From positions 1 to 33,627 of the IMG/VR virus record IMGVR_UViG_3300023314_000006: a DNA stretch of 33,627 nt. One strand, 5' to 3'. Of this stretch, positions 1,565 to 33,625 are shown piece after piece. Within the stretch, counting starts at the first letter, position 1. Every line of letters begins with the position of its first letter. Origin of the DNA: a virus. Taxonomy: Duplodnaviria > Caudoviricetes. The notes beneath the pieces were generated by a model, which had not been told where the DNA came from, made no database searches, and saw only the letters and a list, made by a program, of their open reading frames with translations. The position numbers were made by a program, and so were the translations under genes.

Positions 1565-2539
1565 TTAAAAAAGTGATGGAGCTTTTTGAAATCTTAGCTT
1601 ACATAGTTTCATATTCTCTATAGCCTGTTTAAAGTAGGTATCTTTAAGCTCTACACCTACTCCTTTTCGGCCTAAAGATACGGGGCTGTACACTTCACTG
1701 CCTACACCCATAAAAGGCGTAAATACGGTTTCTCCGGGGTTGCTGTATAGTTCAACACAACGGTCTATTACATCGAGTTGCAAGGGGTGTACATGCTTTT
1801 CATCGTCCTCATCTTTTGCATCACGGAACGGGAGTACGTTGTCTATCCTTATATCATCCCATACAGATGAGGCGTAACGCTGCCAGATGATGTGAGATAG
1901 TTTGTTTGTCTTAGGGTCTTGCCATCCTTCATAGTCTTTCTTTAGCTTTTCGTATGTACCGTATGTTTCAGTATGACCCTCTAAAAATGGTCGCTCACCA
2001 AAGTATTCGGTAAGACCTACAGGGTGTGTTACCGGAACTTCATTTACCCCGTTTCGCTTGAATATAAGCAGATAATCTGGCATGGCCGTAAAGCACTCTG
2101 TACTATCTTCTACTATCAGTTTGTGCATCAGTGACTTTACCATAGTACGCATACGAACTTTTAATGGCTCCTTCCATATGGTTACAGTATTCCGATGCGC
2201 AAACCCGTGTTTCTGATGCAGTTTTTTCACCTCATGCGGCAAGTCGTACATGTTACCGTCTTTGCCTATTATGTCAGTGATGTGAACGCAATTGATACGC
2301 CCCGGATTTGTGACCCTTGCCATTTCCTTTATAAGAAATTCATATTGCTCAAGGAATTGCTCTTTGCTTGTGCAATTACTAAAGTCGTTATCATGGCTAC
2401 TGTAATTATACAGACCTCCAAAAGGCGGAGAATATATAGACAGGTCAATAGACTTATCAGGAAGTGTAGGCAGTACGTACATGCAATCTCCTTCATAGAT
2501 CGCGTAATTGTCGGTTATTATTTGGTTTCTTACAGCCAT
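1565..2539 (-). CDS. Amino (N4-C/N6-A) DNA methyltransferase, beta arrangement
   Basis: Motif IV DLSIYSPPF, then HVHPLQ, then SAM-binding motif FTPFMGVGSE. Confidence 0.92.
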   Translation of the reverse strand: MAVRNQIITDNYAIYEGDCMYVLPTLPDKSIDLSIYSPPFGGLYNYSSHDNDFSNCTSKEQFLEQYEFLIKEMARVTNPGRINCVHITDIIGKDGNMYDLPHEVKKLHQKHGFAHRNTVTIWKEPLKVRMRTMVKSLMHKLIVEDSTECFTAMPDYLLIFKRNGVNEVPVTHPVGLTEYFGERPFLEGHTETYGTYEKLKKDYEGWQDPKTNKLSHIIWQRYASSVWDDIRIDNVLPFRDAKDEDDEKHVHPLQLDVIDRCVELYSNPGETVFTPFMGVGSEVYSPVSLGRKGVGVELKDTYFKQAIENMKLCKLRFQKAPSLF

Positions 2540-3888
2540 GATGGTGTTGATATTGATTTATTAAATGGTGATTGTTTTATTTCGTACTTGGCATTAAGGT
2601 TAGCATTAAGGCTGTTGAATAATTCATTTGCCTTTGTTGTTTTAACCTCTATAGATTTTAGCACCCTTGATTGACCGTTACTGCTTACCCTGTCTGCAAT
2701 TACTTCTTTTTGCTGTCCGTACCTCCAAAATCTGCGTATGGCCTGATACCATTTTTCATAGCTGAAATCAGGGAAATATACCGTATGGTTGCAGTGTTGC
2801 CAGTTAAGTCCGAATGCGGTTATAGTTGGCTTTGTGACCAGTTTTTTTATTTCTCCATTTGCGAATGCAAGTAGTATCTCTTCTTTTTTGTCGATGTGCA
2901 TACTACCTGTTATCTGTATCAGCGACTTATCCATCTTGCAAAGCGTTTCAGCCTCCGGGTTATAGTTCACCCAGAAAACTGATGTTTCGTGTTGCGTAGC
3001 CAGTGATATAGCTTTTTCGCACCGTTCATTTATTGTGGCTTTTTCTTCAAAAGATATTTCAGAACGGGTACGGGCTATCCTGTTGAATAGTTCTCCTGGT
3101 AAAGGCTTCCTGTTAAGTATTACGTGGTCATTAACTACCAATTCAGGCAAAGTAAATCCATCGTCACTAAATCCAAGGTCTGACGGTTTACGCATGGATA
3201 TACTCCATCCGCTTACCCACTCGAAAAACGCTTTTTTGGCATGACCTTTAAGTATCCATTCTGTTCCTATATGCTGCGGGCTTATCGTATCTTCATTATT
3301 GGTGAAGAACTTTGTGAGCATATCCGTGTATCCTAAGTAACCCAATGCCTCGGAGCTGGTACCCAACTCTGTAAAGTCATTAGGCGAGGGTGTAGCGGTG
3401 AACAGGTAGCGATATTTTACTTTCTTCAAAAAGGCGGTGATGCGTGTTTTTAGTTCCCCTTTGAAGTTTTTGAGTATGCTACTTTCATCGAGTATTACGC
3501 AATCAAAATCGCTTGGGTCAAAGTGCTGTAGCCGTTCGTAATTGGTAACTACTATTTTTGATTTGTACTTTCCATCCTTGCTATACTCGATATCGTCTAT
3601 CTCGAATTTGGCAGACTCTTTTATAAACTGAAAAGCAACTGCCAAAGGAGTAAGGATAAGAGCGGGCTTGTTGGTATGCCTGATGTAGTTTACCGCCGTG
3701 ACAAGCTCAATGATAGTTTTCCCGTGTCCTGTATCAAGAAAACATGCCGCCCTGCCTTTTTCTATAGCATAATTAGCCACGTACTTTTGTTGCGGGAATA
3801 ACTTGTCAGGAATATATAAGGCGGGTATTCCTTGCCGTCCTATGCTGTGCTTTTTTGTTTCTAAAAACTGTTCGTATGTTAGTCCCAT
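2530..3888 (-). CDS. SNF2-like superfamily 2 helicase
   Basis: Walker A DTGHGKT, Walker B ILDESS, TATPSPND, FGLNWQHC, QAIRRFWRYGQ. Confidence 0.9.
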   Translation of the reverse strand: MGLTYEQFLETKKHSIGRQGIPALYIPDKLFPQQKYVANYAIEKGRAACFLDTGHGKTIIELVTAVNYIRHTNKPALILTPLAVAFQFIKESAKFEIDDIEYSKDGKYKSKIVVTNYERLQHFDPSDFDCVILDESSILKNFKGELKTRITAFLKKVKYRYLFTATPSPNDFTELGTSSEALGYLGYTDMLTKFFTNNEDTISPQHIGTEWILKGHAKKAFFEWVSGWSISMRKPSDLGFSDDGFTLPELVVNDHVILNRKPLPGELFNRIARTRSEISFEEKATINERCEKAISLATQHETSVFWVNYNPEAETLCKMDKSLIQITGSMHIDKKEEILLAFANGEIKKLVTKPTITAFGLNWQHCNHTVYFPDFSYEKWYQAIRRFWRYGQQKEVIADRVSSNGQSRVLKSIEVKTTKANELFNSLNANLNAKYEIKQSPFNKSISTPSWL

Positions 3889-17796: not shown

Positions 17797-18282
17797 CTAT
17801 AGACCCCGCCGTAAGCCCACAGGGTGCAGGGTATGCTTAATAAATCCGAGCAGCCCCGCATCATGTATAGTCCTGCGTTTCAGCCGAACCACTGCGTACC
17901 CGTCACGTGACCCATCCGTATTGCTGTTACCTTCAATTGTTACCATCGTCCCTTTTGGTAGTACGCTCTCCACAAAACCCGTATGCCCCTTGCCGTGGCC
18001 GTGGTCATAGATGAACTGATAGCCTGGTAGAACGTTCTCCGGTGTTGCGTCCTTAGCGAGTAGCTTGTTCGGACTATTGCGCCAACATTCAAGACAGCCG
18101 CCGGTGCGATGCGACTTGACCCCACCCTCTTTGAGTACACGGTACACGAACGCCTGACACCATGCGGCGGGGAACGCTATCCCGACCGATGCGAGGCACG
18201 TCTGCACGAATGCGCCCCAATTGCTGCCCCGTGGTACTTCCTCTTTGCCGATGTATGATTGTGCGATTTGTAGGTGGTTCAT
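17797..18282 (-). CDS. CHAP-domain endolysin
   Basis: A.SYIG.EE.P.GSN, AWCQAFV (catalytic Cys), GHTGFVE (His), TIEGNSN. Confidence 0.9.
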   Translation of the reverse strand: MNHLQIAQSYIGKEEVPRGSNWGAFVQTCLASVGIAFPAAWCQAFVYRVLKEGGVKSHRTGGCLECWRNSPNKLLAKDATPENVLPGYQFIYDHGHGKGHTGFVESVLPKGTMVTIEGNSNTDGSRDGYAVVRLKRRTIHDAGLLGFIKHTLHPVGLRRGL

Positions 18283-20782: not shown

Positions 20783-21112
20783 CTACTTATTTTTAGTGAA
20801 CACCCCGTAAATACTATCCAATACCGGCTTCCAGTTGAGCGTAGCAATGTACATCAGTATCTTATCGCTGCATAGCGTGGCTATAGGCACTATATATGGG
20901 GCATACGGCTTGTAATGATACTCACACCACATGGATGCGAGAAAACCGATAAAGCAAGCGACACCCGTAGCACCTATTATGTACCAGATGGAAATCTTTT
21001 TCCTCTTCACGATATCAAAGCTGAATTTCCCCATAACTCCTATCATTACATAGAAAATATAAGACCACCACTTAGTCAGGAATGTTAATGTTTCTTCTTT
21101 AATATCGTGCAT
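20783..21112 (-). CDS. Putative holin / membrane protein
   Basis: Two to three hydrophobic segments with a KRKK loop; an alternative start lies at 21127. Confidence 0.6.
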   Translation of the reverse strand: MHDIKEETLTFLTKWWSYIFYVMIGVMGKFSFDIVKRKKISIWYIIGATGVACFIGFLASMWCEYHYKPYAPYIVPIATLCSDKILMYIATLNWKPVLDSIYGVFTKNK

Positions 21113-21423
21113 CTTCTGATGGTGCATATAGTTATCAATACTGCGAATGCCAATTCATTGAGTTGCAATCTTGTAGGGTCGAAAAACATCTCATCCAGCA
21201 AGTTACTAATTATCAGCCAAAGTGTAATTTCAAATGTTATCTTATTGCGGGGGAATAAATGGGCAAGTATCAGGAACAAAAACGATGCCGATTGCCCCGT
21301 ATAGTACCACCATCTACCCACATCAGAATACCTACCGCCATCCATTAATGAACCCGTGCCGATATCTATGATACGCGGCACGGTATTCAGTAAAATTGAT
21401 AGCAGGCATAATATGCTATACAT
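21085..21423 (-). CDS. Multi-pass membrane protein
   Basis: About four hydrophobic segments; SNLLDEMFFDP. Confidence 0.7.
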   Translation of the reverse strand: MYSILCLLSILLNTVPRIIDIGTGSLMDGGRYSDVGRWWYYTGQSASFLFLILAHLFPRNKITFEITLWLIISNLLDEMFFDPTRLQLNELAFAVLITICTIRRCTILKKKH

Positions 21424-21706: not shown

Positions 21707-22354
21707 TTATTGTTCTGTTGCTGTTACGTTTACTGCTTGTGATGCTACGTTGCTATATGTTGGGAGTAACCCTATTACATCTGACCTCAACTGCACATAC
21801 ACTGAAAATCCTGTAGTGGTGCTACTCGTTAGTAGTATCGTCATTTTGTTTGACCCGCCAACGATATTGTATTGCACGTTTGGAGTAGCGGCAAATGCAG
21901 TGCTATAAGTTACGCTGTACACCCCGCTTGCATTAGTGCTGCCGGCGTATCTGTCTATCCGCGGTATAGCAGGGAACGTAGCGTATGTGCCGTTACCCCT
22001 TATGTATTGGCCGGACGTGCCGGAAGGGGCAAGATATGCGCTGTTGTCATAGCTTACAGTAGTACCTGCCATACGCACAAGTCCGGTGCCGCTAAGTGCG
22101 GCCTGCCGTGTGGCTATCTGATTAGCTATATACCTCTTAGCGGCATTGCCCGTGATGAGGTTAAGCGTTGACCAATCAGCAGCCGTAGTGTCTGTGCTGA
22201 ATGCAGTAATGATATTAGCCCCTATTTTCAGGCCGTCCCCCATATACATGGAGCTTACCTGCGCCGTGGCGGGATGGGTGTTCCTGCCTATCAGCAGATA
22301 CATTGACATAGCGGATAGTAGTAGCGTAATGATGCCTATGATGTTGTTTCTCAT
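21707..22354 (-). CDS. Fibre-like protein with an N-terminal signal or anchor
   Basis: Hydrophobic N-terminus then ATA-Q; GTSGQYIRGNGTYATFP fibre motif; C-terminal VTYSTAFAATPNV...TTTGF like fibre-tip domains. Confidence 0.7.
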   Translation of the reverse strand: MRNNIIGIITLLLSAMSMYLLIGRNTHPATAQVSSMYMGDGLKIGANIITAFSTDTTAADWSTLNLITGNAAKRYIANQIATRQAALSGTGLVRMAGTTVSYDNSAYLAPSGTSGQYIRGNGTYATFPAIPRIDRYAGSTNASGVYSVTYSTAFAATPNVQYNIVGGSNKMTILLTSSTTTGFSVYVQLRSDVIGLLPTYSNVASQAVNVTATEQ

Positions 22355-22953
22355 TGTGTGGTAAAGTATATGGTTGTGGTTGAAGTGATACCAGTGAAAT
22401 AAAAGGTAGTAGCCGTAGCATATCGCCTGTTGACATAGAAATTAACAAGCCCCGAACCGCCAACCAGCGGCCATGCATTTAGTATAGCCGTGCCGGCCGG
22501 AACAATGTCTACGCTTATATTCTCATTGCTGACACTGGAAATGTCAAAGGATAGCATCTTATGGCCTGCTGGCAATACGTATGTAGTGTTACCAGTTACT
22601 ACCTTTTTTTCTAAGAAAGAAAACTCTCCATTGCGCATAGCTATGTATGGCTTTTGCAACGTGTATATATTCTGAACAGTTCCCTGAAAGAACCGTTCCG
22701 GCCATATGCACACGGTATCAGGCAGCCAACCAACAGCCGTAATATATCCAAAATCTGTAGGGAATTGCGGTATTGAGTTAGGGTCAACCCAAAAAATATT
22801 GTTGGTATCTACATTACAGTAGAACGTATTGATGCCCACCGTCTTATTTTGCATCCTTAGCGCAAAACTATCTGGGATAGAGATAAGCGGGCTGCATTGT
22901 CCATAAGCCCCAGCCGATACGGCTAATAGTAGTATTAGTAATAGTGTTTTCAT
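22351..22953 (-). CDS. Signal-peptide-bearing hypothetical late protein
   Basis: MKTLLLILLLAVSAGAYG-Q; beta-rich. Confidence 0.7.
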   Translation of the reverse strand: MKTLLLILLLAVSAGAYGQCSPLISIPDSFALRMQNKTVGINTFYCNVDTNNIFWVDPNSIPQFPTDFGYITAVGWLPDTVCIWPERFFQGTVQNIYTLQKPYIAMRNGEFSFLEKKVVTGNTTYVLPAGHKMLSFDISSVSNENISVDIVPAGTAILNAWPLVGGSGLVNFYVNRRYATATTFYFTGITSTTTIYFTTQ

Positions 22954-23774
22954 TTTACTGCGATTTCGTCTTTTAAAAGGTTACTTATTGCCAATGCCTG
23001 CGCCGCCGATACAGTTAGCCCGATGGTATAGCCGTATATGCTCCTGTTGCTCTTGTTGCCCAAGAACCCTGTAGCCGTGCCGCCTATATTGATATTGCCA
23101 ACAGGCAATCCCGTAGTAGTATTAGAGAACGGATTGACACTATACGCTGCGCCGCCTTTGTATATGCTTATCTGAGTGCTGTTGTTTCTTGTGATGGTGA
23201 ACACGTCAGCAGTGCCTGTAGACACCTGCGATGTGCTGGTAGATGGGTTAGTCCCAAGAGATGCGAAGAAGTTGCCGCCCGTATAGTTCAGGCGCATCAC
23301 ATCAGCAAGTGAGGTCGTGCCGGTGAAGAACTCCCCGCAAGCACATGCGCCACTACTGGTCAATGTCGAATAAGTGTAGTGTATGCTGTTCTGCGGCATA
23401 GATGATCGTACCACATCCGACACCATGAATTGTGTTGAGCCGTTCAATGCTATGTTCCCATCATTTTGAACAGGCGCACCGCTGAATGTAGACGTGCCAA
23501 GCGTGACGTAATCAATGGCGTGTGCAGTACCTGTATTCCCAATAACAGGATTATGCGCCAGTACCGTACCTGTCAGGTCAACGAACTGTTTGCCGCCTAC
23601 CGATCCATTCAGGCTGAACCGTGTTGCTATAGTGCGCAACATGAGTATATCCTTAGCCCGCAGCGTTACCCCTGCCGACTGCAACGTACGGGCATAGGCG
23701 ATGCTCTGCGGGCTGTCGTAGGTCTGCGCCGTAGCGGTCAGAGCGGTTAGGAGTATGAGTAGTATAGTGCGCAT
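22950..23774 (-). CDS. Signal-peptide-bearing beta-sandwich (lectin/LamG-like) late protein
   Basis: MRTILLILLTALTATA-Q; LNGSTQF, ITRNNSTQISIYKGG, INIGG, IG.T.S pattern. Confidence 0.65.
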   Translation of the reverse strand: MRTILLILLTALTATAQTYDSPQSIAYARTLQSAGVTLRAKDILMLRTIATRFSLNGSVGGKQFVDLTGTVLAHNPVIGNTGTAHAIDYVTLGTSTFSGAPVQNDGNIALNGSTQFMVSDVVRSSMPQNSIHYTYSTLTSSGACACGEFFTGTTSLADVMRLNYTGGNFFASLGTNPSTSTSQVSTGTADVFTITRNNSTQISIYKGGAAYSVNPFSNTTTGLPVGNINIGGTATGFLGNKSNRSIYGYTIGLTVSAAQALAISNLLKDEIAVK

Positions 23775-24061
23775 CAGTTAACAGCTTCGTATGTTGCCTC
23801 GAAAATATCGGGCTTGCATGGGTAAAATTCACCCTTCACGCCTTTGATAATGTAGTCCCCTATAGATGCTATATGCTCGCCCTCTAACGTTTTGATTATA
23901 AGCCCGCCAACTACTTTTGCATGGTCTATTTCAAAATTTTCTCCTTTTGATTTAAGATAATCATTAGGGTTACCTAATAGAAAATCGTTCATTTCTCGGT
24001 GATTTTCTCCCGTCCAAAGAACCGCCTCAATAACTACTGGTTTTTTTCTGTACTGCTTCAT
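23774..24061 (-). CDS. Conserved small phage protein
   Basis: YRKKPVVIEA..WTG.N...IKTLEG..IASIGDYIIKGVKGEFYPCKPDIFE.TYE. Confidence 0.9.
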   Translation of the reverse strand: MKQYRKKPVVIEAVLWTGENHREMNDFLLGNPNDYLKSKGENFEIDHAKVVGGLIIKTLEGEHIASIGDYIIKGVKGEFYPCKPDIFEATYEAVN

Positions 24062-24071
24062 ATTATTTGTT

Positions 24072-25679
24072 TTAGTACGTGGTATAATCTATTGTGACCC
24101 TATTAGCGTAATCGTTCCATCGCAGGTAGTATATCGTTAGTCCATTGGCCGCCGTGTTGCATCCTGGTTGTGCGCCTGTTCCAAGTGCGCTGCTGAATGT
24201 CTGACCACGGAAGTATATAGCACTGCCGCCGGTAGCGTTCTGTAGCACCGTGAGCATTACGGTTGATGTGAAGCCACCACCACCCGCAGCGGTTGCGCCG
24301 AACCCTGCAAGTGTCACGGTATCCGCTGCGAAGTTGTCGGTAGTGAAGCCCTGTGAGTGGCCTGTAGTAGCCGTTAACGTGGTTGCATGGGTAGTGAGGG
24401 TTAGTGTGTTGGTAGTTACAGCGGCGATGGCAACCGTGGGGTTAACCGATGCCGTGCCCGTGAGCGTAAGCCCATCCCCTACATACACTACAGTAGCCGA
24501 CCCGCTACCGGCTGATATAGCCACGGTAGTAATGGTTGTTATCCTCCCCTTGCTATCTACAGTAAGCACCTGATTCACCGTGCCGCTGCCATACGTGCCC
24601 GGCGTGGCGTTAACGGTCTGTAATGTGGCGGCTGCACTGCCGGGGCCGGTCGCTGATACATCGCCTGTAAGTGCTGTTATATAGTTTCCTGTATTTTGTT
24701 TCAGATTAATGCGCCCGCTCAGTCCGGCAGTGTCGGCACTATTTAGTTTGAGGTTAATTCTACCTGACAAACCTGCCGTATCTGAACTATTCAATTTTAA
24801 ATTTATCCTGCCAGATAGCCCCGCCGTATCACTTGAATTTAGCTTTAAGTTTATCCTATTGGATAGTCCAACGGTATCCGCATAGCCCATTTTCAAGTTG
24901 ATACGGTTGCTCAAAGATGCTGTATCCGTTGCTGTAAGTTTAAGATTTATCCTGTTCGACAACCCCACGGTGTCGCTGTAATTCATCTTGAGATTGATGC
25001 GATTGCTTAGGCTTGCCGTGTCCACACTGTTGAGCTTTAGATTTATCCTGTTGCTTAATGAGGTGGTATCTGTACCCGCCGGTAAATGACTATTGAAGTA
25101 ATCGAGCGTGATGGGGTTTTTCGCAGTGTTACTATCAGCACGTATAAAAAACAAAGCCTGAGAATTGACCCCTGTAATGTAATTGCCGAATAGGTACGTG
25201 TACACATCATTTATCCATCCGTTTGTAAGTCCTGTAGTAGGTACGTGCTGATTGTCCGGCGAACCGCCTACGCTGTCAACGGCTGATAGGTTTAACTTAT
25301 TGCCTATAGCCCCGTATATGTTCGCACGGCTGGTATCTGACCTGTATTTGGTGTAGAAAGTGGCACTATCCCCGCCGCCACCGTTCATGATGATGTATGT
25401 ACTATCTGTTGGAGATAGACCGCCTGAGCCGCCGCCACCATTAAGCATTACCGCCATACCGTTACTGTCTATACCCATGTACCTTACGGTATGAGGTATG
25501 GCGTAGAACGGCATCCGCAGCGTACCGGCTATAAACTGGCTCCATAGGTTGCTATCCAATGTCTGTGTATTCCCGTGAGGGTACACCTTCAACCGCGGCT
25601 GCAAAACACCGCCGGACGACCGTTGCCCGAAGCACGCAGAAGACAAAGTAAATGCAAGTATGAATAATATTATTCTCAT
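24072..25679 (-). CDS. Fibre protein with a signal peptide and 16-aa repeats
   Basis: MRIILFILAFTLSSACFG-Q; 8 repeats; GTYGS...LTVDSKGRIT fibre motif; G/T/A-rich. Confidence 0.8.
   Translation of the reverse strand: MRIILFILAFTLSSACFGQRSSGGVLQPRLKVYPHGNTQTLDSNLWSQFIAGTLRMPFYAIPHTVRYMGIDSNGMAVMLNGGGGSGGLSPTDSTYIIMNGGGGDSATFYTKYRSDTSRANIYGAIGNKLNLSAVDSVGGSPDNQHVPTTGLTNGWINDVYTYLFGNYITGVNSQALFFIRADSNTAKNPITLDYFNSHLPAGTDTTSLSNRINLKLNSVDTASLSNRINLKMNYSDTVGLSNRINLKLTATDTASLSNRINLKMGYADTVGLSNRINLKLNSSDTAGLSGRINLKLNSSDTAGLSGRINLKLNSADTAGLSGRINLKQNTGNYITALTGDVSATGPGSAAATLQTVNATPGTYGSGTVNQVLTVDSKGRITTITTVAISAGSGSATVVYVGDGLTLTGTASVNPTVAIAAVTTNTLTLTTHATTLTATTGHSQGFTTDNFAADTVTLAGFGATAAGGGGFTSTVMLTVLQNATGGSAIYFRGQTFSSALGTGAQPGCNTAANGLTIYYLRWNDYANRVTIDYTTY
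24699..25070 (-). repeat. Eight 16-aa (48-bp) repeats DTxxLS(N/G)RINLKxxxx
   Basis: Visible in translation; strongly diverged at synonymous sites. Confidence 0.95.
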
Positions 25680-26152
25680 TATAATTGTGTGCTAATTAAT
25701 GACCATTGGTAGTTTGCTCCCGGTATTAATGCGTTACCTCCCGCAGTAATACGTATTACTGCGGCCGAAAGAGAAAATATAATCACCTGATTGGGCCCCG
25801 ATAGCAGGGATGCATTGCTGTTGGCTGGCGACCACACCACGGAAGGGGCTGCGGTTTTGGGCGTTCCGTATGTTATTTCGGCTACAGTAGCGGCAGATGC
25901 CGGGGTTGTACCAATAGTTACGCTCACCGTCATGTTATTATCATTGCCCACAAGAATAGATACGCTGCCCCCAGTTCCCAAGCCTGCACCTGCCGTAATT
26001 GTCGGAGTGCTGGTAGTTCTGAAAGGGAACTTACTCTTAAGGTAGTTGACAAGAGAAGAGACGGGGAATAGGCAATCCAATGGCCCCGTGCGAACGCCAA
26101 CTAAAGCATCATTATCTCCTATTGCCTGCCCAGGTATTTCGCTTAGTTTCAT
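25679..26152 (-). CDS. Putative virion fibre/adaptor protein without a signal peptide
   Basis: MKLSEIP...GDNDALVGVR N-terminus; PTITAGAG.GT.GSVS..GND beta-rich domain. Confidence 0.6.
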   Translation of the reverse strand: MKLSEIPGQAIGDNDALVGVRTGPLDCLFPVSSLVNYLKSKFPFRTTSTPTITAGAGLGTGGSVSILVGNDNNMTVSVTIGTTPASAATVAEITYGTPKTAAPSVVWSPANSNASLLSGPNQVIIFSLSAAVIRITAGGNALIPGANYQWSLISTQL

Positions 26153-26769
26153 GGTTCTATTACGTCTAAAAAGTACCCTATATCTGTGTTGTTAATTCGA
26201 ACTTCAGTCATTACCTCGCTGCATATCCCCCCCTTATTGGTCACTATGTTTATTTCCGGAACCTCTATGCAGTACTCTATCATGGCGGTAACCTCATTTG
26301 TGGCATCCTGCCATTGCTGCGCCTGATATACCTCAACCTTATTTACATAGGCCTGCTTATTGAATGGCGGCGCAAAACCAAGCCTTATGTATGCCTGATT
26401 AGCAAGGATGGCGCGGATGGCGCGGATAAGCCTGTGTATGTCTACGGTTGCTATCTGGTCGCCCGCTTTAACCGCTGTTGTCTTTGCCCGGGTTGATAGT
26501 TCGATATTGTAGGTGTACAAACCATGCACCTGCGTTATCTCCCTGCTCTTCTCATCATATTGGCCGCCCTGAAACCTTATATTCACATAGGGCAATTCAG
26601 TGGGTACATTTGGCGGATCTATGCGCTCTAACCATACTTTATCAGGCGCGTCAAAAGTGGGATCTAATGCTTTTTGATTTGCAAGCTCCAGCAGCAGCAC
26701 CGCGCCGAGCGCATCTCGGATGCGTTCAAATGAAGCGGGTGGTATGATACCGTTTATCTTTGCGGGCAT
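26149..26769 (-). CDS. Putative neck / tail-terminator protein
   Basis: FERIRD.LG.VL..EL.NQ...ER..P...ELP.VN; position after head genes. Confidence 0.55.
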   Translation of the reverse strand: MPAKINGIIPPASFERIRDALGAVLLLELANQKALDPTFDAPDKVWLERIDPPNVPTELPYVNIRFQGGQYDEKSREITQVHGLYTYNIELSTRAKTTAVKAGDQIATVDIHRLIRAIRAILANQAYIRLGFAPPFNKQAYVNKVEVYQAQQWQDATNEVTAMIEYCIEVPEINIVTNKGGICSEVMTEVRINNTDIGYFLDVIEP

Positions 26770-27473
26770 TAGAAACTATATATTGGCGCGTTAATGTTAA
26801 ATGCTATCTGGTCTCCGGGAACAATAGACCCGTAAGTGAATGTGAATGTGCCATTGTTATCGAACCGCTCTTGATAATTATCGTTTCCGACAATGAATGG
26901 CACAAGTACAAAGCAGTTAACTGTATCTCGCACGTAAGGCACGGTAAATGAGCCGTCCTCGTTAAGCGCATATTGCAGTGGTATCACATCTCCATTATCC
27001 AGGGTCTGCGTAGTGTCGTCCGGCGTGGTTACAATATCAACATATACCTTCAGTTCGCCGTAGCCCACTATGACCTTTACAGGGATCGTAGGCGCATCGT
27101 AATCATCGAGTATCAGCACTATCAGTCCTATATTTTCGTCCGGCCTGTTCTGCCTTACTGAGTATGTCCACTCCAGCCCGCTTACATCAGTCCAAGTAAC
27201 TTTATGCTGCAACAGGTCTACTTCATTCTGCATGTTACGGGTAGGATAACCCGCCTCTATCAGTGCCGCCTCGCTTACTGCTATACTGGCAGTTCGTGCC
27301 ACACTCCTGAACCCGTTCTCATCCTGCTTCAGCATGTGCTTTGTCTGCAATGCCGATACGGTCTTTGTGATAGTATTGTCAGGGTTAACGAATATTACTG
27401 ATGTGCCAAAACCCGTAACGTTATTGGTAGTTATACGCTGTATAAGTTGCTGCGCACGGTTGGTAATATTCAT
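26769..27473 (-). CDS. Putative head-closure (gpFII-like) protein with a C-terminal extension
   Basis: N-terminal beta domain ending PDENIGLIVLILDD, plus about 105 extra aa. Confidence 0.55.
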   Translation of the reverse strand: MNITNRAQQLIQRITTNNVTGFGTSVIFVNPDNTITKTVSALQTKHMLKQDENGFRSVARTASIAVSEAALIEAGYPTRNMQNEVDLLQHKVTWTDVSGLEWTYSVRQNRPDENIGLIVLILDDYDAPTIPVKVIVGYGELKVYVDIVTTPDDTTQTLDNGDVIPLQYALNEDGSFTVPYVRDTVNCFVLVPFIVGNDNYQERFDNNGTFTFTYGSIVPGDQIAFNINAPIYSF

Positions 27474-27685
27474 TATTTGGTCTTTGTCTTGCCCTTAGTC
27501 TCTGGTTCAAAAGATACCGGATGTTCTACAGATAGCGGGGCTACTTCTTCAATGAAGCCGCCGTTTTTGAGCCTGTCTATCTCATCGGGCAAAAAGGCAT
27601 CTTCTGGTAGCACATCTCCACCGTTGAGAACCTTTTTAAGCATACCGGAGTAGCACGATGCGGCAATTACCTTATACTGTTTCAT
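27473..27685 (-). CDS. Small post-capsid protein B
   Basis: MKQYKVIA...GDV...L...GFIEEV. Confidence 0.7.
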   Translation of the reverse strand: MKQYKVIAASCYSGMLKKVLNGGDVLPEDAFLPDEIDRLKNGGFIEEVAPLSVEHPVSFEPETKGKTKTK

Positions 27686-27851
27686 TGGTCTTGTTTTTTG
27701 CGGGTTTCTCTTCCTTCACTTCCTCTATTGCTTTTTTGGCAACAAGTTCGGCCACATCAGAAAATTCAGTTTCGTTCACCACGTCGCCTTTTGCATATTT
27801 TGCGCTTAGGTGCGTGGTTATTGAATTGGCAAGTACTCTGTATTGCTTCAT
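27672..27851 (-). CDS. Small post-capsid protein A (59 aa)
   Basis: Manual translation MKQYRVLANSITTHLSAKYAKGDVVNETEFSDVAELVAKKAIEEVKEEKPAKNKTNETV. Confidence 0.7.
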   Translation of the reverse strand: MKQYRVLANSITTHLSAKYAKGDVVNETEFSDVAELVAKKAIEEVKEEKPAKNKTNETV

Positions 27852-27864
27852 GTCAGATTTTTTT

Positions 27865-27899
27865 AAAAAGCCCCGCCGGTATTTATTCAGCGGGGCTTT
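27865..27899 (-). terminator. Intrinsic terminator after the major capsid gene
   Basis: AAAGCCCCGCTG...CGGCGGGGCTTTTT on the minus strand. Confidence 0.85.
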
Positions 27900-27919
27900 G
27901 TGATGGTGTCTGCTTAATG

Positions 27920-29005
27920 TTATGCTACCGGCTGTACAGTGTATATCTGGTCTACTGCGGTAGGTATTGCTATACCACAGCTCTTAATATCCATGATGTG
28001 CGATGTCATGCGCGGGTCGATATAATCCTCAACGAGGTATGCTTGTGGTTCAACAGATGGGGCTATAAGGCCGCCATTGCTATCACCCCTAACCACACGC
28101 GGAACGGCAGCGAATGCCATTTTAAAGCGTGGTCGCTTAGGTATCATTATCACCTTTTTAGGGTCTATATACGGTGTGGCCACCACATTGCCGCCGCTCA
28201 CTACATCGTATGATTGCGGGTAAGACCAAAGTTCGGTCTTGTACTGGCCTATGGTTAGCGTGCCGTGGTAATCTGCACCTGCGCTGTCACGCTGCGGAGT
28301 GCTTACCGTGTCGATAGAATTGTTTAAGTTCTGGAACACACGACCTTTAAATATAGTGTTGTTGAACAGGTCGTTGAGTGCAGTTTCTCCAAGGATGGTT
28401 ACAAATGTAGTGTCCGGGCTTTTGCCTACAGTGCGCAGGAACTTAGCACCTGCCGCAAGTGTCGCAAAAGGATCAACCGTTCCGGTAGCCCATGTATTGC
28501 CCGCGCCATTAGCTACGAGGCTTGCAGCCTTACGGCGGTAGTCTACGCTATCGCCATTGACCATTGTTGCCACACCCGTTTGCAGTATCTGCGCACACTG
28601 GTTTTCATACGCGCGCTCCATCTTGTTACGCAACATTGAAATCCTCCGGGCGCAAAGGGCAACTATCTGAGAGAATACACCCACCTCTATACCTGCGCTG
28701 CCAAATAGGCGGTCGTACAGGTCTATGTCGGTCATCTCGAAATACTCACGGTAGTACGCAGGGTCGATAACTTTTTCAGTTGATTTCGTAAACTTGTTAC
28801 GCGTTCCTTCGCTGCCCCGCTGTACATCTACTGATATAAGCTCAAGGTCACGCTCTACCTGAATAGATACATAACGGGTGAACTCCTGAACCGAAGGGAA
28901 AAACGACCGTAAGAAATTGGTCGGGGAGAGCATATCCTCGTACACATCCACAAGGGCTGATGTGAGCTGCGCTCTCGCTTGGTTGGTTGCTATTATTCCT
29001 GCCAT
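27920..29005 (-). CDS. Major capsid protein, lambda gpE family
   Basis: 361 aa; FL.SFFP, V.RG..G, P.Y.E, R..E..C.QIL.TG, VDY.R, YIDPKKV; follows the Clp and decoration genes. Confidence 0.9.
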   Translation of the reverse strand: MAGIIATNQARAQLTSALVDVYEDMLSPTNFLRSFFPSVQEFTRYVSIQVERDLELISVDVQRGSEGTRNKFTKSTEKVIDPAYYREYFEMTDIDLYDRLFGSAGIEVGVFSQIVALCARRISMLRNKMERAYENQCAQILQTGVATMVNGDSVDYRRKAASLVANGAGNTWATGTVDPFATLAAGAKFLRTVGKSPDTTFVTILGETALNDLFNNTIFKGRVFQNLNNSIDTVSTPQRDSAGADYHGTLTIGQYKTELWSYPQSYDVVSGGNVVATPYIDPKKVIMIPKRPRFKMAFAAVPRVVRGDSNGGLIAPSVEPQAYLVEDYIDPRMTSHIMDIKSCGIAIPTAVDQIYTVQPVA

Positions 29006-29027
29006 TTTTTAGTTGTTTTTTATCGGT

Positions 29028-29495
29028 TTAGTTGTCGGCTATTGTGTTTTCTACACCTGCTACAGGGTTAATTCCTTTGCCTACAAGTATGTCCTCTATG
29101 GTGCCATACTGTGTAGTTGTAGCCGCCGGAACGCTGCTATTGAACAGGATAACGGTAGCGAATGTATCTGTACCGTTGCTGAATGTCAGGGCGGCGGGGT
29201 CTACATCTCCGCTATAGCAATACGTTAGTGTTGCGGAAGCCCCGTTAAGAACGACATGCGAACCGCGCAATATACCGATAGGTATCTGGCTGCCGTTGGT
29301 AGCGGTTGACACCATCGGTACAACTAACCCCGTAGCGAATATCCGGCCAAGGACCGTACCAGATGCAAGGGTTACCGTACCACCAGTACTGTTGGTATAT
29401 GATGCTGTCCGGAACCTGCCATTCCAGATGAATGTCTTTGTGTAGTCGAATTGGGTAGTAAGTAACCCGTTAAGATATGCTGTAGTTGTTGCCAT
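29028..29495 (-). CDS. Head decoration protein (gpD-like position)
   Basis: LASGTVLGRI..TG..VP....TNGSQIPIGIL. Confidence 0.8.
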   Translation of the reverse strand: MATTTAYLNGLLTTQFDYTKTFIWNGRFRTASYTNSTGGTVTLASGTVLGRIFATGLVVPMVSTATNGSQIPIGILRGSHVVLNGASATLTYCYSGDVDPAALTFSNGTDTFATVILFNSSVPAATTTQYGTIEDILVGKGINPVAGVENTIADN

Positions 29496-29500
29496 GTCAG

Positions 29501-30469
29501 TTATATTTTAGGGGTCATTTTTTTTACGTTAGCCTTTACCTGTGCCATGAAGTCGGCATTTGCCGCCTGCTCTGCTGTGGTTGTGTTGTCTGTAACTCCG
29601 GTAGTCACATCAGCAGTAGCATCAGCCGCTATATTTGCAAGCCCTGCCTTAGCGAACATCTTGCGCTGAAATTCAGCCGTCATTTTCGGTGTCAATGTGC
29701 CGCCGTTCTCGATAGCCTCAGCCACCGCCTTAGGGTCAACGTCATGGAACACCATAAGGGACGATACACGCATCTTTTCAGCGTCTGCGCCCTCTTTCAC
29801 TATCGCATCGTAAGCCGCCGGATTGGCTGCTTTAAAATCTGCTGAAGTCATAATATTTGTGGTTTGTGTTAATACTGGTTCTGTAGAGAACGCTGCAACG
29901 CCATAAGATGAGGCAAGCGCATGGATCTCGTTTTTCTTAGCAGGGGTTAGGGCGTTCACGCGGTTCACTAAGCCCATTTCTTTTGCCTGTGCCGCTGTGA
30001 TATTTACATCTATTCGGCTATTCAGGCTGAATACCTCATCGAGCGTTACGCCGGTGATAAGATGAAATGTGGCTGGAGCTATTTTGGCTTCAGTGGCCGC
30101 CTGTAATGATGTGTTTATTTTTGTGAGCTGTGCCTTTACCTCATCGGTAAATATTTCGGGGTCTTCTTCCATCCATGATGGATAGGCCGCCCTGTGTATC
30201 ATGAAGTCGGAAACGTCAAGGCACTCTACATCATCAGCATACACACAAAAGAAAAAGCCGCCGGACTTAGCCATGCCGTCAACCTTTAGTGTCTTGCCTT
30301 TGGTATGCTCCGCGTACTTTGCGTACATGCCATACGCCCCATACACTTCACCACCGGGGCAATTCATTCGTACCGTTATATCATTGCCCTTATTCGCCTC
30401 CATCTGCTCGATAAAATCGGCAGCCGTGAACGAGTATATCGGACTATATAAAAGTATCTCCTTTGTCAT
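29501..30469 (-). CDS. ClpP-like prohead protease with a scaffold-like C-terminus
   Basis: RMNCPGGEVY.A, VDGMAKSGG (Ser), FMIHRA (His), A.QAKEMGLVN. Confidence 0.9.
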   Translation of the reverse strand: MTKEILLYSPIYSFTAADFIEQMEANKGNDITVRMNCPGGEVYGAYGMYAKYAEHTKGKTLKVDGMAKSGGFFFCVYADDVECLDVSDFMIHRAAYPSWMEEDPEIFTDEVKAQLTKINTSLQAATEAKIAPATFHLITGVTLDEVFSLNSRIDVNITAAQAKEMGLVNRVNALTPAKKNEIHALASSYGVAAFSTEPVLTQTTNIMTSADFKAANPAAYDAIVKEGADAEKMRVSSLMVFHDVDPKAVAEAIENGGTLTPKMTAEFQRKMFAKAGLANIAADATADVTTGVTDNTTTAEQAANADFMAQVKANVKKMTPKI

Positions 30470-30562
30470 GAATGACTAAAAGTAAATAGGGTAAAATAAA
30501 ATGAAACTCAATGCACATAAGTAAGCATAAATAGATTTATATTTGCAAAACACAACTGATTT

Positions 30563-30751
30563 ATGGCAAAAACTAAACAGCATTTCCTACGGCTGACCGT
30601 AAGCCCTATTACGGCTGAAGACCTGAAAGACATTGAAGAGTACTATGGGGAAAGCCCGTCACGTGTTATTTTTGGCGATGTGGCCGAAATAATCAAGACC
30701 CGAGCGGCACGGGCTAAGGTAGCCCTTAATGCAACAAGACCCGCACGGTAG
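30563..30751 (+). CDS. Small putative ribbon-helix-helix DNA-binding protein
   Basis: LRLTVSP...EDLKDI..YYGESPS pattern; TATATTTG at 30538-30545. Confidence 0.55.
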   Translation: MAKTKQHFLRLTVSPITAEDLKDIEEYYGESPSRVIFGDVAEIIKTRAARAKVALNATRPAR

Positions 30752-30763
30752 CGGGTCTTGTTG
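30732..30763. terminator. Hairpin terminator after the portal gene and the small convergent gene
   Basis: CAACAAGACCCGC-ACGGTA-GCGGGTCTTGTTG, 13-bp stem. Confidence 0.75.
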
Positions 30764-30781
30764 TTGGTAGTAGCATGTGTG

Positions 30782-32452
30782 TTATTCCTCTTCTTTTTCA
30801 GTGGCTTCCGTATCGTCCTCTGTTAGCTTATCCTGCTGCTCGATGCCGAGCGCGTCTCCCTCTTCCATTTCCTTAGCGTACTGGCTCATATTCGCCACTG
30901 CATCACCAAGGCCAAGGGCTTTCGCCGCCTGCTCGAAAGTGCCTATCGGCAGATGTTTGCTACCTTCTCCGAGTATAGCCCTCCAATAGTTGGCCTCCTT
31001 CAGCGGGTCTATATGTCCGAGCTTTTCACCCTCCCAGATACACATACGGTAAGCGACAAGAACATACTCGTTCTTTTCCTGCAATGCTTGTAAATAGCCT
31101 GGCGCGTTAATCTCTAAGCTATAGACCCATATATCCATTTGCAGGTTGTATATAGGCTGCAAAAAGTGGTTGCCCTGATAACCCCACTCCCTTGCTAATC
31201 TCATGCCCTCTGCAAGGAATGCGGCACGTGATGCGCTGAAATTGCTATCGAACTTGCTTGCTACTATTTCCGGCGGTATGCCGGCCAGTGCGGCCTGCTC
31301 TTCTATCACCGCTTTATTGAACGGTTCAAAGTGTAACTGATTCCCGCTCTCCAATGCTACCAGTTCAGACCCCGGAGGCATGTTGGTAACAGTGCGGTTT
31401 GTAGACGCGTTAACGGTGTTCGCTATGGCCTTACCCTCTGCGCTGTAATCGAGCTGACTGGATGCGCTCGGACGGTCTATATCATAAGCCTTTGTGAGGT
31501 CTTTAATTCGCGGGTCTTCTCCGGTAGAATTAAGGTCATGCTTAATGAAGTACGGGGCTTTGGCTATCTCTTCTGCCGCCGATACCGTGGCTGATTTGTA
31601 GCGGTTCAATTGGCTTGCAGTTTCCATGCCTGCCGATAAGCGCGGCAACCCTTTTTCGCTATCAACCCTGAAATCCTCATCAGTGAGAATATAGGCCATA
31701 AGACTGCCGGACTTCTTACCGTAAGCCTCTACCCTTTGGTAGTTAAGCCCGTAGCCTGTACGCACGTAATATGCTACGTGGCGGCCTGTGCTGTCTATCT
31801 CTACACCCCATCTTACGCGGTTCCCTGTGTCTGGATTTATGCGCTCAATAGCGTTGTAGTTTATCTTATCCTCAGTAGCGAATGCGAAGTTAATCGGTGT
31901 TTGCAGGTATATGCCATCTACAAGCTGAACCTTCACCACATTATTCACAGGGCGCAGGATAACCAATACGGTACCGGCCACAATGCTGTTGAGGTATGCC
32001 CGTGCATGTACTTCACCGAGCGTATTTTTACCGGCATAATCAGCCATACGGGAATTGGCATAGAGGTTCCACATATCTTCCACCTCTGAATTGAACTTTT
32101 CAAGTTCAAGGTCTATGCCGCTCTTTTTTAGGTAGTTCACCACCGGCGCACATTGCAGCTTCAGGCCACCACCAATAACAGTATCTTTCAGCCGCTTCAT
32201 GATGGTTTTGTAGTTGCTACTCTCCAAGTACAATTGCCATGACCGTATCATAAGGGTGTCATGGTCTACCACATAATTTATCGGTGGTGCCATTTCTCCT
32301 AATGCGTTCTGGCCGTTGTACGGGGCAGTATATGCAGCAGTGCCATAGCCCACACCGATACCAGCTAATGCGGTCGGCTGGGCTTGCTCTTCTACCGGTT
32401 CGGCCTTTGCCTTTTTACTCTTAAATGTTATCTCTAAACTACCTATACGCAT
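30782..32452 (-). CDS. Portal protein, lambda gpB family
   Basis: L.IRSWQLY, VIGGGLKL, GVEID..GRHVAY, GIP.E, NFSASRAA, IDPLKEA. Confidence 0.92.
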   Translation of the reverse strand: MRIGSLEITFKSKKAKAEPVEEQAQPTALAGIGVGYGTAAYTAPYNGQNALGEMAPPINYVVDHDTLMIRSWQLYLESSNYKTIMKRLKDTVIGGGLKLQCAPVVNYLKKSGIDLELEKFNSEVEDMWNLYANSRMADYAGKNTLGEVHARAYLNSIVAGTVLVILRPVNNVVKVQLVDGIYLQTPINFAFATEDKINYNAIERINPDTGNRVRWGVEIDSTGRHVAYYVRTGYGLNYQRVEAYGKKSGSLMAYILTDEDFRVDSEKGLPRLSAGMETASQLNRYKSATVSAAEEIAKAPYFIKHDLNSTGEDPRIKDLTKAYDIDRPSASSQLDYSAEGKAIANTVNASTNRTVTNMPPGSELVALESGNQLHFEPFNKAVIEEQAALAGIPPEIVASKFDSNFSASRAAFLAEGMRLAREWGYQGNHFLQPIYNLQMDIWVYSLEINAPGYLQALQEKNEYVLVAYRMCIWEGEKLGHIDPLKEANYWRAILGEGSKHLPIGTFEQAAKALGLGDAVANMSQYAKEMEEGDALGIEQQDKLTEDDTEATEKEEE

Positions 32453-32757
32453 CTTCTTCCGTATCTTAAATTTTGTTCAGGAATATGGCGAACCTGCCGC
32501 CCATTAAGTCTGCTTACGTACCTCTGCCTGATGCTTTCAAAGGCATCTATAGCATTGCTTATTTCTTTTACGCCGCGGTATTTGCAGGTAACCTTTGTTT
32601 GCCCCGTATCAAGATAGTACTCTGTAAGGTCGCTATTACCGGCGGCACTCAACGAGGCCAAAAATAGCGCATCGATAACGGCATCTATTGCAGCTATTTT
32701 AGCCTCTGTTGTCGTGCAGCTTTGCACATATATTGCCGATGATGAATATTCTACCAT
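32443..32757 (-). CDS. gpW-like head completion protein
   Basis: IAAIDA.I..L...EY.LDTGQT....YR; directly upstream of a lambda-type portal. Confidence 0.6.
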   Translation of the reverse strand: MVEYSSSAIYVQSCTTTEAKIAAIDAVIDALFLASLSAAGNSDLTEYYLDTGQTKVTCKYRGVKEISNAIDAFESIRQRYVSRLNGRQVRHIPEQNLRYGRRCV

Positions 32758-32759
32758 GA

Positions 32760-33251
32760 TCAGTTAGTTAATACGTTTGTTGTCTTAGCCCCTGTAATAT
32801 TTAAAGGAGCAGGCGGAACATAAGCCCCTCCCGCTCCGGCTATTCCGGCGGTAATAGCTGCATCAAGGCCTGCAAGATACGTAGCTAAGGCGGTATTCAA
32901 GCCCTCCCATTGCGTAAAATGATTTACAGGTGTGCCGGTGCCGATGGTTATGTTTGTAGCGGTGGCATATACGTAGTATTTTAGCGCGCCTGATGTGTCG
33001 GTGCTGTACATCATACTCTCCCCCTCATTCACGGGCTTTGCGGCCTTTACGATGTAGCCCACTATCACATTATCCATGCGGTTAGCGGTGTCCATATACA
33101 CCGCCGTAGTCTTCGCTATGGGGCTGCTGACCCATCCATAAGGCGCAACATCATAACACTCCCTTGCGTCCGTCTTGCTGGTAACAAGTGCAGTAATAAG
33201 CCTAAGCCCTGCCTGTATTGCACTGCTTACAACCTTGCTAAGTGCGATCAT
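32760..33251 (-). CDS. Mu gp45-like baseplate spike protein
   Basis: PYGWVSSP...AVY...VIVGY...VNEGES..YS. Confidence 0.65.
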   Translation of the reverse strand: MIALSKVVSSAIQAGLRLITALVTSKTDARECYDVAPYGWVSSPIAKTTAVYMDTANRMDNVIVGYIVKAAKPVNEGESMMYSTDTSGALKYYVYATATNITIGTGTPVNHFTQWEGLNTALATYLAGLDAAITAGIAGAGGAYVPPAPLNITGAKTTNVLTN

Positions 33252-33625
33252 GCGAATATATTTTTAGGCACGTCATTATTAAATACCTCTGGCAATACGC
33301 AATATAACCGGGCTGTCTGGCTTCGCTCATCTGCTTTGTAATCGGCAGTTAGAATAAAGAAACTGGCAGGCTTGTACAAGTGCAATTCAGGGTTTGTTAT
33401 CGAAATAATATCACCGGGCTTCGCTATCTTACCATTAAGTTCCCACCCCTGCATATCTATTATCAAAGGTATAGATTTAAGTTCCTCTGATAAGATATTT
33501 CTTTGGGCTTTATCGGCCTGCGTCCCCGCTGTCAGCATGGCGACCTTTGGCCGAAATCCTAACTTTGGGTTTTCTGGATTGCCGATGGTGTTATTGAATG
33601 CCACACCGAGATAGTTAATCCTGCT
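33248..33625 (-). CDS. Mu gp44/gpP-like baseplate hub, C-terminal part; begins beyond the right edge
   Basis: Frame is open to the edge; QGW..NG...KPG..I.I.NP...F.I....Y..D...TA.L..V.PE.F. Confidence 0.65.
   Translation of the reverse strand, partial: SRINYLGVAFNNTIGNPENPKLGFRPKVAMLTAGTQADKAQRNILSEELKSIPLIIDMQGWELNGKIAKPGDIISITNPELHLYKPASFFILTADYKADERSQTARLYCVLPEVFNNDVPKNIFA

Follow-up and report, generated by a model that had tools for sequence, protein, structure and literature searches.

Sequons of the Bacteroidota O-glycosylation system follow predicted export signals in phage fibres with a 16-residue repeat stalk

Results

Gene content of the window

The window (the whole 33,627-nucleotide stretch analysed here, part of a 51,124-bp contig) contains a fibre cassette located between head-completion and lysis genes on the same strand (Table 1). 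The stretch occurs in two sequencing runs, both leaf-litter metagenomes, one of which is possibly its source; no RNA dataset containing it was found among the listed runs. Promoter and terminator scans of the window gave chance-level results. The best cultured matches of the capsid were those of the Flavobacterium FCL-2/FL-1 and Cellulophaga phiSM myoviruses (29-32% identity). A Pfam scan of the 62 ORFs of this 33.6-kb window matched no glycosyltransferase family, and the initial annotation was correct in reporting none there.

Table 1. Features of the fibre cassette and its surroundings (window coordinates)
Feature	Coordinates	Strand	Basis
Fibre protein, whole ORF, 535 aa, likely exported	24072..25679	(-)	ORF list and counts
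Predicted Sec/SPI signal peptide, aa 1-18, followed by Gln19	25626..25679	(-)	By eye and hydrophobicity heuristic
N-terminal base, aa 19-203; D[ST] at 7/10 Asp; without the MAT-like N-terminal domain of host fibres	25071..25625	(-)	
Stalk of eight 16-aa repeats (aa 204-331), predicted to be a trimeric alpha/beta coiled coil (heptad + nonad), D-T-[AVT] in each	24687..25070	(-)	Sequence, AF2, PMC4786415 passages
Post-stalk beta module, aa ~328-395, common to many signal-less fibre proteins	24495..24698	(-)	
C-terminal tip, like phage tail-fibre C-terminal domains (PF26209); sequons at chance	24075..24494	(-)	ESM Atlas
157-aa signal-less protein immediately upstream, its stop overlapping the fibre start	25679..26152	(-)	Gene order
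95-aa phrog_419 protein inside the cassette, also in L131	23774..24061	(-)	PHROG
274-aa signal-peptide protein, likely ConA/LamG lectin fold; D[ST] at 1/9 Asp, not sequon-rich	22950..23774	(-)	
200-aa signal-peptide protein, unknown family; D[ST] at 3/7 Asp, p=0.11	22351..22953	(-)	
215-aa protein with a longer hydrophobic N-terminus (signal peptide or anchor)	21707..22354	(-)	
Holin-like membrane genes after the cassette (weak holin matches)	20783..21423	(-)	Pfam, PHROG
CHAP endolysin	17797..18282	(-)	Pfam, PHROG
Virion module upstream: baseplate-hub fragment, lambda-family portal, Clp-type protease, head decoration, major capsid, head closure	26149..33604	(-)	

Three other leader-bearing proteins of the window also have Gln after the hydrophobic N-terminus, with sequons at chance. 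Neighbouring DTV and DTT motifs, cited in the initial annotation alongside those of the fibre, are indeed present, but at chance frequency (p=0.42 and 0.54), and thus do not support glycosylation; no strict sequon was counted in the 274-aa neighbour. A T9SS C-terminal sorting domain was found in none of the four window proteins scanned. The signal-less phrog_419 gene (23774-24061) breaks the exported cassette at the identical place in the window and in L131 (L numbers denote related loci).

Judged from gene order, the 157-aa protein is a candidate cytoplasmic, virion-side partner of the fibre. A small signal-less gene occupies the same slot in L129 (108 aa) and in phi47:1 (gp07, annotated as structural); similarity between the 157-aa protein and its L129 counterpart is not significant. 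L129 shares its head genes with the window (capsid 58%), has a different leader-bearing fibre in this slot, and carries a separate gene for a signal-less baseplate fibre. The latter (L129:2100-2723) encodes 208 aa versus 348-389 aa in FCL-2, and L129 also encodes an 849-aa leader-bearing BNR-like fibre.

Several other features of the window were recorded. The head-closure protein (26769-27473) has a C-terminal extension of ~105 aa, phrog_4598 matching aa 4-126 of 234, while the L129 orthologue is 123 aa long. Baseplate and hub genes (30563-33604) lie 5' of the portal gene, as in L129 and unlike FCL-2 and phiSM. An N6/N4 DNA methylase gene overlaps that of an SNF2-like helicase at 1565-3888 (Pfam).

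The fibre protein is rich in sequons at its base and stalk

Out of 25 Asp residues in the fibre, 17 are followed by Ser or Thr (D[ST]; 5.8 expected from shuffling), and 12 belong to the strict sequon D-[ST]-[AILVMT] (2.7 expected); neither count was attained in any of 2000 shuffles. Both observed numbers are identical to those of the initial annotation. The extended motif D-(S/T)-(A/I/L/V/M/T/S...) is matched by 16 of the 17 D[ST] sites. The sites are unevenly distributed: D[ST] occurs at 7 of 10 Asp in the pre-stalk base (p=0.0004), at 8 of 8 in the stalk, and at 2 of 7, the chance level, in the post-stalk part. With the repeats left out, 9 of 17 Asp remained in D[ST] (p=0.007) and 4 of 17 in strict sequons (p=0.10). 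The same base-to-tip polarity was seen in P0002 and P0026, the two closest relatives of the fibre, and in 25 complete fibres with masked repeats the D[ST] share of Asp was 57% for the first fifth of the sequence and 18% for the last.

The N-terminus has the form of a Sec signal with Gln at +1, by which the fibre is predicted to be non-cytoplasmic. AF2 placed a helix at aa 2-16 with high pLDDT, and cleavage is predicted before Gln19; Gln right after the cleavage site corresponds to the Bacteroidetes Q-rule (PMC5837995). A baseplate-docking N-terminal domain is absent, the signal peptide being found in its place, and neither the MAT N-terminal domain (NF053851) nor phrog_5194/5221, markers of this phage family's baseplate fibre in L129, matched the window fibre.

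The protein is fibre-like, and its tip is predicted to be of tail-fibre type: comparison with PF26209 gave an ESM Atlas feature score of 0.90-0.91 and a TM of about 0.5, near the lead threshold. No family in Pfam, PHROG or NCBIfam matched the fibre, and a PDB sequence search gave no match. In tblastn against cultured phages nothing was found for the fibre, the L129 fibre, the L030 gene or the 206-aa gene, and matches of the L050 fibre were confined to tail-fibre and chaperone stretches. A related-locus search of viral contigs likewise returned nothing for the fibre, the lectin-like gene or the 206-aa gene.

The stalk repeat fits an alpha/beta coiled coil

As reported in the initial annotation, each of the eight repeats contains one sequon (DTT, DTA, DTV, DTA, DTV, DTA, DTA, DTA), at a spacing of exactly 16 residues. 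An assembly artefact as the source of the repeat was ruled out by second-sample contigs, which span 24585-25694 with zero differences. The repeat is conserved as protein only and not as DNA: TRF detected no DNA tandem repeat at the stalk, and the invariant Asp and Thr are encoded by two and four codons, respectively. Seven further repeat positions equal D-T in invariance.

In alpha/beta coiled coils position g is nearly always D, E or Q, which caps the next helix (PMC4786415). The stalk repeat satisfies this pattern (a heptad with a two-residue insertion, the beta-layer consensus, and a capping D/E/Q at g), its register running from a Lys-Leu-Asn beta-layer through e and f to Asp at g and Thr at a. 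The predicted fold is a trimeric alpha/beta coiled coil with beta-layers at 16-residue intervals, and the stalk would be about 19 nm long. An AF2 monomer built from a 68-sequence alignment had helices broken every 16 residues in this register (pLDDT 57-68; mean for the model 48), with the repeat Asp within the first helical turn of every repeat. A single-sequence AF2 model, which rendered the stalk as beta strands, was discarded (mean pLDDT 40.5), and Foldseek comparison of the alignment model with BFVD gave no match at E<=0.001. In an alpha/beta coiled coil of this register, the repeat Asp has a structural job with or without a glycan, and it is probably a helix cap and a sequon at once. Thr occupies a predicted core position, which counts against its glycosylation. 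Ser has been described at the first core position of a prophage fibre, and in a table row for a Streptococcus prophage fibre the register of D-T is occupied by Glu-Thr and Glu-Ser, so that [DE]-[ST] can arise structurally (PMC4786415).

The same stalk occurs in other phages and in Chitinophagales chromosomes

The stalk repeat is common, with 1260 matches among 8000 candidates and roughly 260 IMG/VR stretches. An in-frame repeat was present in 66 of 79 genome loci, and the 13 without an in-frame D-T-led repeat were set aside. The in-frame loci were titled Bacteroidota in 62 cases, many being Chitinophagaceae or Sediminibacterium; the other four comprised two unclassified loci and two short contigs with phage-like neighbours. 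L144 and L151, short contigs binned as Actinomycetales and Micavibrio on which the repeat genes have phage-type neighbours, are probably misbinned phage contigs. The distribution of the repeat, together with the capsid relatives, makes Bacteroidota the likely host of the phage.

In phages, the repeat resides in large signal-bearing proteins, in several loci in a fibre slot after the tape measure and hub genes, and some of these proteins end in Peptidase_S74 or tail-fibre PHROGs. In one fibre subgroup (L004:8057-13177, L006, L014, L020, L026, L035 and kin), ~45 basic amphipathic residues precede the signal peptide. L131, and L132 in a looser form, have the window cassette next to a different virion module; given these unrelated modules and the separate baseplate fibre of L129, no conserved docking site is evident.

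The same repeat forms the stalk of chromosomal signal-bearing fibres in Chitinophagales. One of these, L176, matched Bdello_MAT_N weakly (23 bits versus a cutoff of 60). The host MAT-like fibres are regularly preceded by a secreted protein of 170-186 aa (L184:4567-5091, L143:6969-7484, L173:4766-5281, L176:4845-5402), with a T9SS type A sorting domain above cutoff in one and weak in two; these proteins may provide a partner-assisted export route for trimeric fibres. Host genes 3' of the fibres (L143:1710-4664, L191:711-5101, L173:7565-12226) are extremely sequon-rich (e.g. D[ST] at 42 of 53 Asp), and a related N-terminus was found in phage locus L059:2881-4482.

Sequon enrichment follows export signals

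To compare proteins with and without export signals, 692 complete-start ORFs from 79 viral loci were reduced to 330 non-redundant ones, and signal peptide class was assigned by a heuristic that favours signal-giving starts and requires Gln; the sequences are related, so that counts are not independent. In 34 proteins with both signal and repeats, the observed/expected ratio (O/E) was 2.16 for D[ST] and 3.69 for the strict sequon, and with the repeats masked it was still 1.54 and 2.57. Similar values were obtained for 24 signal proteins without repeats (1.58 and 2.58), while 245 signal-less proteins were at 0.85 and 0.99. E[ST] and N[ST] showed no enrichment in the 330-ORF set. All 34 of the complete-start non-redundant repeat proteins carry a signal, whose sequence differs and whose form is kept. 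Across related phages, enrichment thus goes with export signals and remains when the repeats are masked. The initial annotation had proposed a comparison of signal-bearing with signal-less proteins, and the outcome is in favour of its reading (2.16, or 1.54 masked, versus 0.85).

The aa 328-395 module provides a homologous control. In 40 signal-less fibres with this module (out of 149 representatives), O/E was 0.67 for D[ST] and 0.61 for the strict sequon; seven signal-bearing module homologues without repeats were not enriched either (O/E 0.55). A signal was not detectable in 25 of 94 repeat-bearing matches, which were still enriched (O/E 2.0); most of them evidently begin within the repeats or the signal, and about five are ambiguous. 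Other secreted proteins of the Bacteroidota genome loci had a strict O/E of 1.67 versus 1.03.

The set also held 27 further proteins with hydrophobic starts, among them 13 lipoprotein-like ones with O/E of 4.35 (D[ST]) and 8.09 (strict). The highest sequon density (strict O/E 8.1) belongs to ~165-aa phage lipoproteins with a C-terminal membrane segment that adjoin endolysins (L008:3841-4341, L030:2604-3110, L043:12305-12811, L052:2780-3313 and nine more) and appear unimolecular-spanin-like. No such ~165-aa gene was found in the window.

The third residue matches that of glycosylated sites

In 901 distinct repeat units, collected with an anchor motif that excludes D-T, position g was Asp in 893 and Glu in none. 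The residue after D[ST] was L, I, V, T, A or S in 817 of 889 units (92%); these residues make up about 90% at the third sequon position in glycoproteomes (PMC12871550), where R, H, K, W and Y were never observed (PMC10897501). The latter five followed D[ST] in 18 of 662 cases versus 82 expected, and in 0 of 67 in the lipoproteins, while in signal-less proteins they were found in 67 of 447 (77 expected); the depletion is thus confined to the exported classes. Asn follows D-T in 7% of units versus under 1% in glycoproteomes (PMC12871550), and the repeat as a whole contains few charged residues, which weakens the third-residue argument inside it. In signal-less proteins, loose beta-layer-like motifs (n=16) had Glu in 13, Asp in three and D[ST] in none.

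Leader-bearing structural proteins of cultured phages

In Cellulophaga phage phi18:3, gp085-087 have a signal peptide followed by Gln and are annotated in the phage record as structural from MS/MS, for which vesicle contamination is a possible source. The cultured phages phi47:1 and phiSM combine the capsid family and the cassette layout of the window: a small signal-less structural gene is followed by a leader-bearing structural gene, a leader-bearing hydrolase gene and lysis genes, and two signal-less baseplate fibres are present besides. D[ST] is not enriched in gp085-087 of phi18:3 (5/41, 7/49 and 3/41 Asp) or in gp08-09 of phi47:1 (4/33 and 9/67 Asp). Leader-bearing proteins of both phages being at or below chance, export does not force enrichment. 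A place of the window fibre on the virion is suggested by its gene position and by analogy with these cultured precedents, which are not sequon-rich.

Discussion

The particles of tailed phages are held to form entirely in the cytoplasm, and virion glycosylation, where known, depends on phage enzymes; mycobacteriophage virions are glycosylated by phage-encoded glycosyltransferases in the cytoplasm. The sequon density of the window fibre is confirmed, and its export and glycosylation are likely. Our preferred reading, to which we give slightly less than an even chance, is that of a Sec-exported accessory receptor-binding fibre whose base and shaft are O-glycosylated by the host and which joins the particle at lysis. 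The phage would export the fibre through the host Sec system, and the general O-glycosylation machinery of the host would add glycans to D-(S/T) of the base and the coiled-coil shaft. Glycosylation of some sites is very probable; that of the repeat Thr is rather probable, and a trimer could then carry up to 24 shaft glycans. Because there is neither a T9SS signal nor a MAT-like N-terminal domain, the fibre would be kept in the periplasm until holin and endolysin mix the compartments and it docks on the virion, perhaps through the small signal-less 157-aa protein encoded upstream. We slightly favour the docking step itself. With the phi47:1/phiSM layout and no T9SS, periplasmic storage and pick-up at lysis is the simplest route. 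The likely function is that of a hydrated protective coat with a bare binding tip; the coat would be protease-resistant and host-like, on a shaft that is poor in charge.

The initial annotation had proposed export and host glycosylation of the fibre; enrichment that follows signals and the third-residue match speak for this, while the neighbouring proteins add nothing. The main rival accepts both steps and places the fibre outside the virion: it would remain with the infected or lysogenic cell, inside it or at its surface, or be released at lysis as a free decoy or adhesin, acting like the host MAT-like fibres from which the stalk would have been borrowed. The use of the same repeat stalk by Chitinophagales chromosomal signal-bearing fibres, one of them with the weak Bdello_MAT_N match and one with a neighbour carrying a T9SS C-terminal domain, is consistent with this, as is the movement of the cassette between unrelated virion modules. 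The Q-rule proteins of P. gingivalis phages have also been interpreted as membrane modifiers (PMC10367356). We nevertheless consider a non-virion fibre unlikely, given that the window proteins lack the T9SS and MAT N-terminal domains, that the gene has a late-operon position between head and lysis genes, that only 3 of 34 partial loci had a signal-less S/T-rich ORF of at least 400 aa, and that leader-bearing proteins are recorded in phi18:3 virions.

More improbable still is that the repeat D-T is purely structural (a capping box and a small polar core residue) and unmodified, with glycans on the base only, if anywhere, and no regular shaft coat. The helix-capping role that the initial annotation had named as a rival is real, insofar as Asp occupies the capping position g; the register fits the beta-layer consensus, in which g is nearly always D, E or Q and a first-core Ser is known (PMC4786415), and in the AF2 monomer Asp lies in the opening turn of each repeat helix. 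A purely structural role is opposed by enrichment that persists outside the repeats. Glu at g was also found in 0 of 901 units, versus 13 Glu, three Asp and no D[ST] in the 16 loose signal-less motifs. Common motifs in exported proteins are, moreover, generally near-fully substituted (PMC12871550). As Asp sits at the capping g and Thr in the first core position, glycan attachment to the repeat Thr itself is likely rather than certain. A further possibility, that the N-terminal hydrophobic stretch is a relic or reflects an internal start and is unused for export, would make the protein an ordinary cytoplasmic fibre with inherited sequons. It agrees with cytoplasmic virion assembly, and yet we judge it highly improbable: every one of the 34 complete-start repeat proteins bears a signal, the signals diverge in sequence while keeping their form, and four such N-termini occur in one cassette.

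Each single ingredient of the preferred reading is already known. New here are the periodic stalk common to phage fibres and host adhesins, its alpha/beta register, the signal-less homologous control and the base-to-tip gradient. As a tentative generalisation, Bacteroidota tailed phages may complete part of their particle outside the cytoplasm, with exported fibres, built on the sequon-per-repeat coiled coil that host adhesins also have, that receive the species-specific O-glycan of the host at about 2.4-nm intervals and are attached at lysis. If this is true, a periplasm-matured, host-glycosylated fibre would mean that assembly has a second compartment and that the host confers a modification of the particle surface. 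Each particle would then be marked with the glycan of the host it last grew in, a non-genetic imprint obtained without a phage glycosyltransferase. The function of the Bacteroidota O-glycan and the identity of the transferase are open questions (PMC12871550), and the eight-fold periodic, 128-residue substrate offers a direct tool for studying site occupancy, timing relative to folding, and the structural role of the glycan. Since phi18:3 and phiSM are cultured, the export-then-attach route is testable in them now. In the CC-licensed PMC and bioRxiv literature, we found no paper on exported or host-glycosylated tailed-phage fibres, and no report of a phage substrate of Bacteroidota O-glycosylation was found.

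The fibre would share a sugar-decorated particle with mycobacteriophages and would differ from them in its route, the host periplasm, no phage glycosyltransferase having been found in the window. The leader-bearing proteins of Cellulophaga phages (phi18:3 gp085-087 and phi47:1/phiSM gp08/gp09) resemble those of the window in having a signal peptide with Gln, in being fibre- or enzyme-like and in adjoining lysis genes, but they have no sequence match to the fibre, no repeat stalk and no sequon enrichment. Bdellovibrio MAT fibres are likewise signal-bearing, phage-like, mosaic and trimeric, and the Chitinophagales chromosomal fibres have the same repeat; both are cellular surface proteins with a conserved N-terminal domain of ~130 aa, which the phage fibre lacks (PMC10769870). 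With the alpha/beta coiled coils of OMP100, Tcar0761 and the Streptococcus prophage fibre 2C3F, the stalk has in common a K-aliphatic-N/T/D beta-layer, a capping Asp, a heptad + nonad register and the fibre context, while strict 16-residue alternation and the invariant D-T are found in the stalk only, as far as described in PMC4786415; the term 'hexadecad' does not occur in the available text of that paper. With the known substrates of Bacteroidota O-glycosylation, finally, the fibre shares D-(S/T)-X, a Sec signal and the third-residue spectrum (PMC12871550, PMC10897501), and it differs from them in being phage-encoded, periodic and far denser in sequons (strict O/E about 3.7 versus 1.7 for the average host secreted protein).
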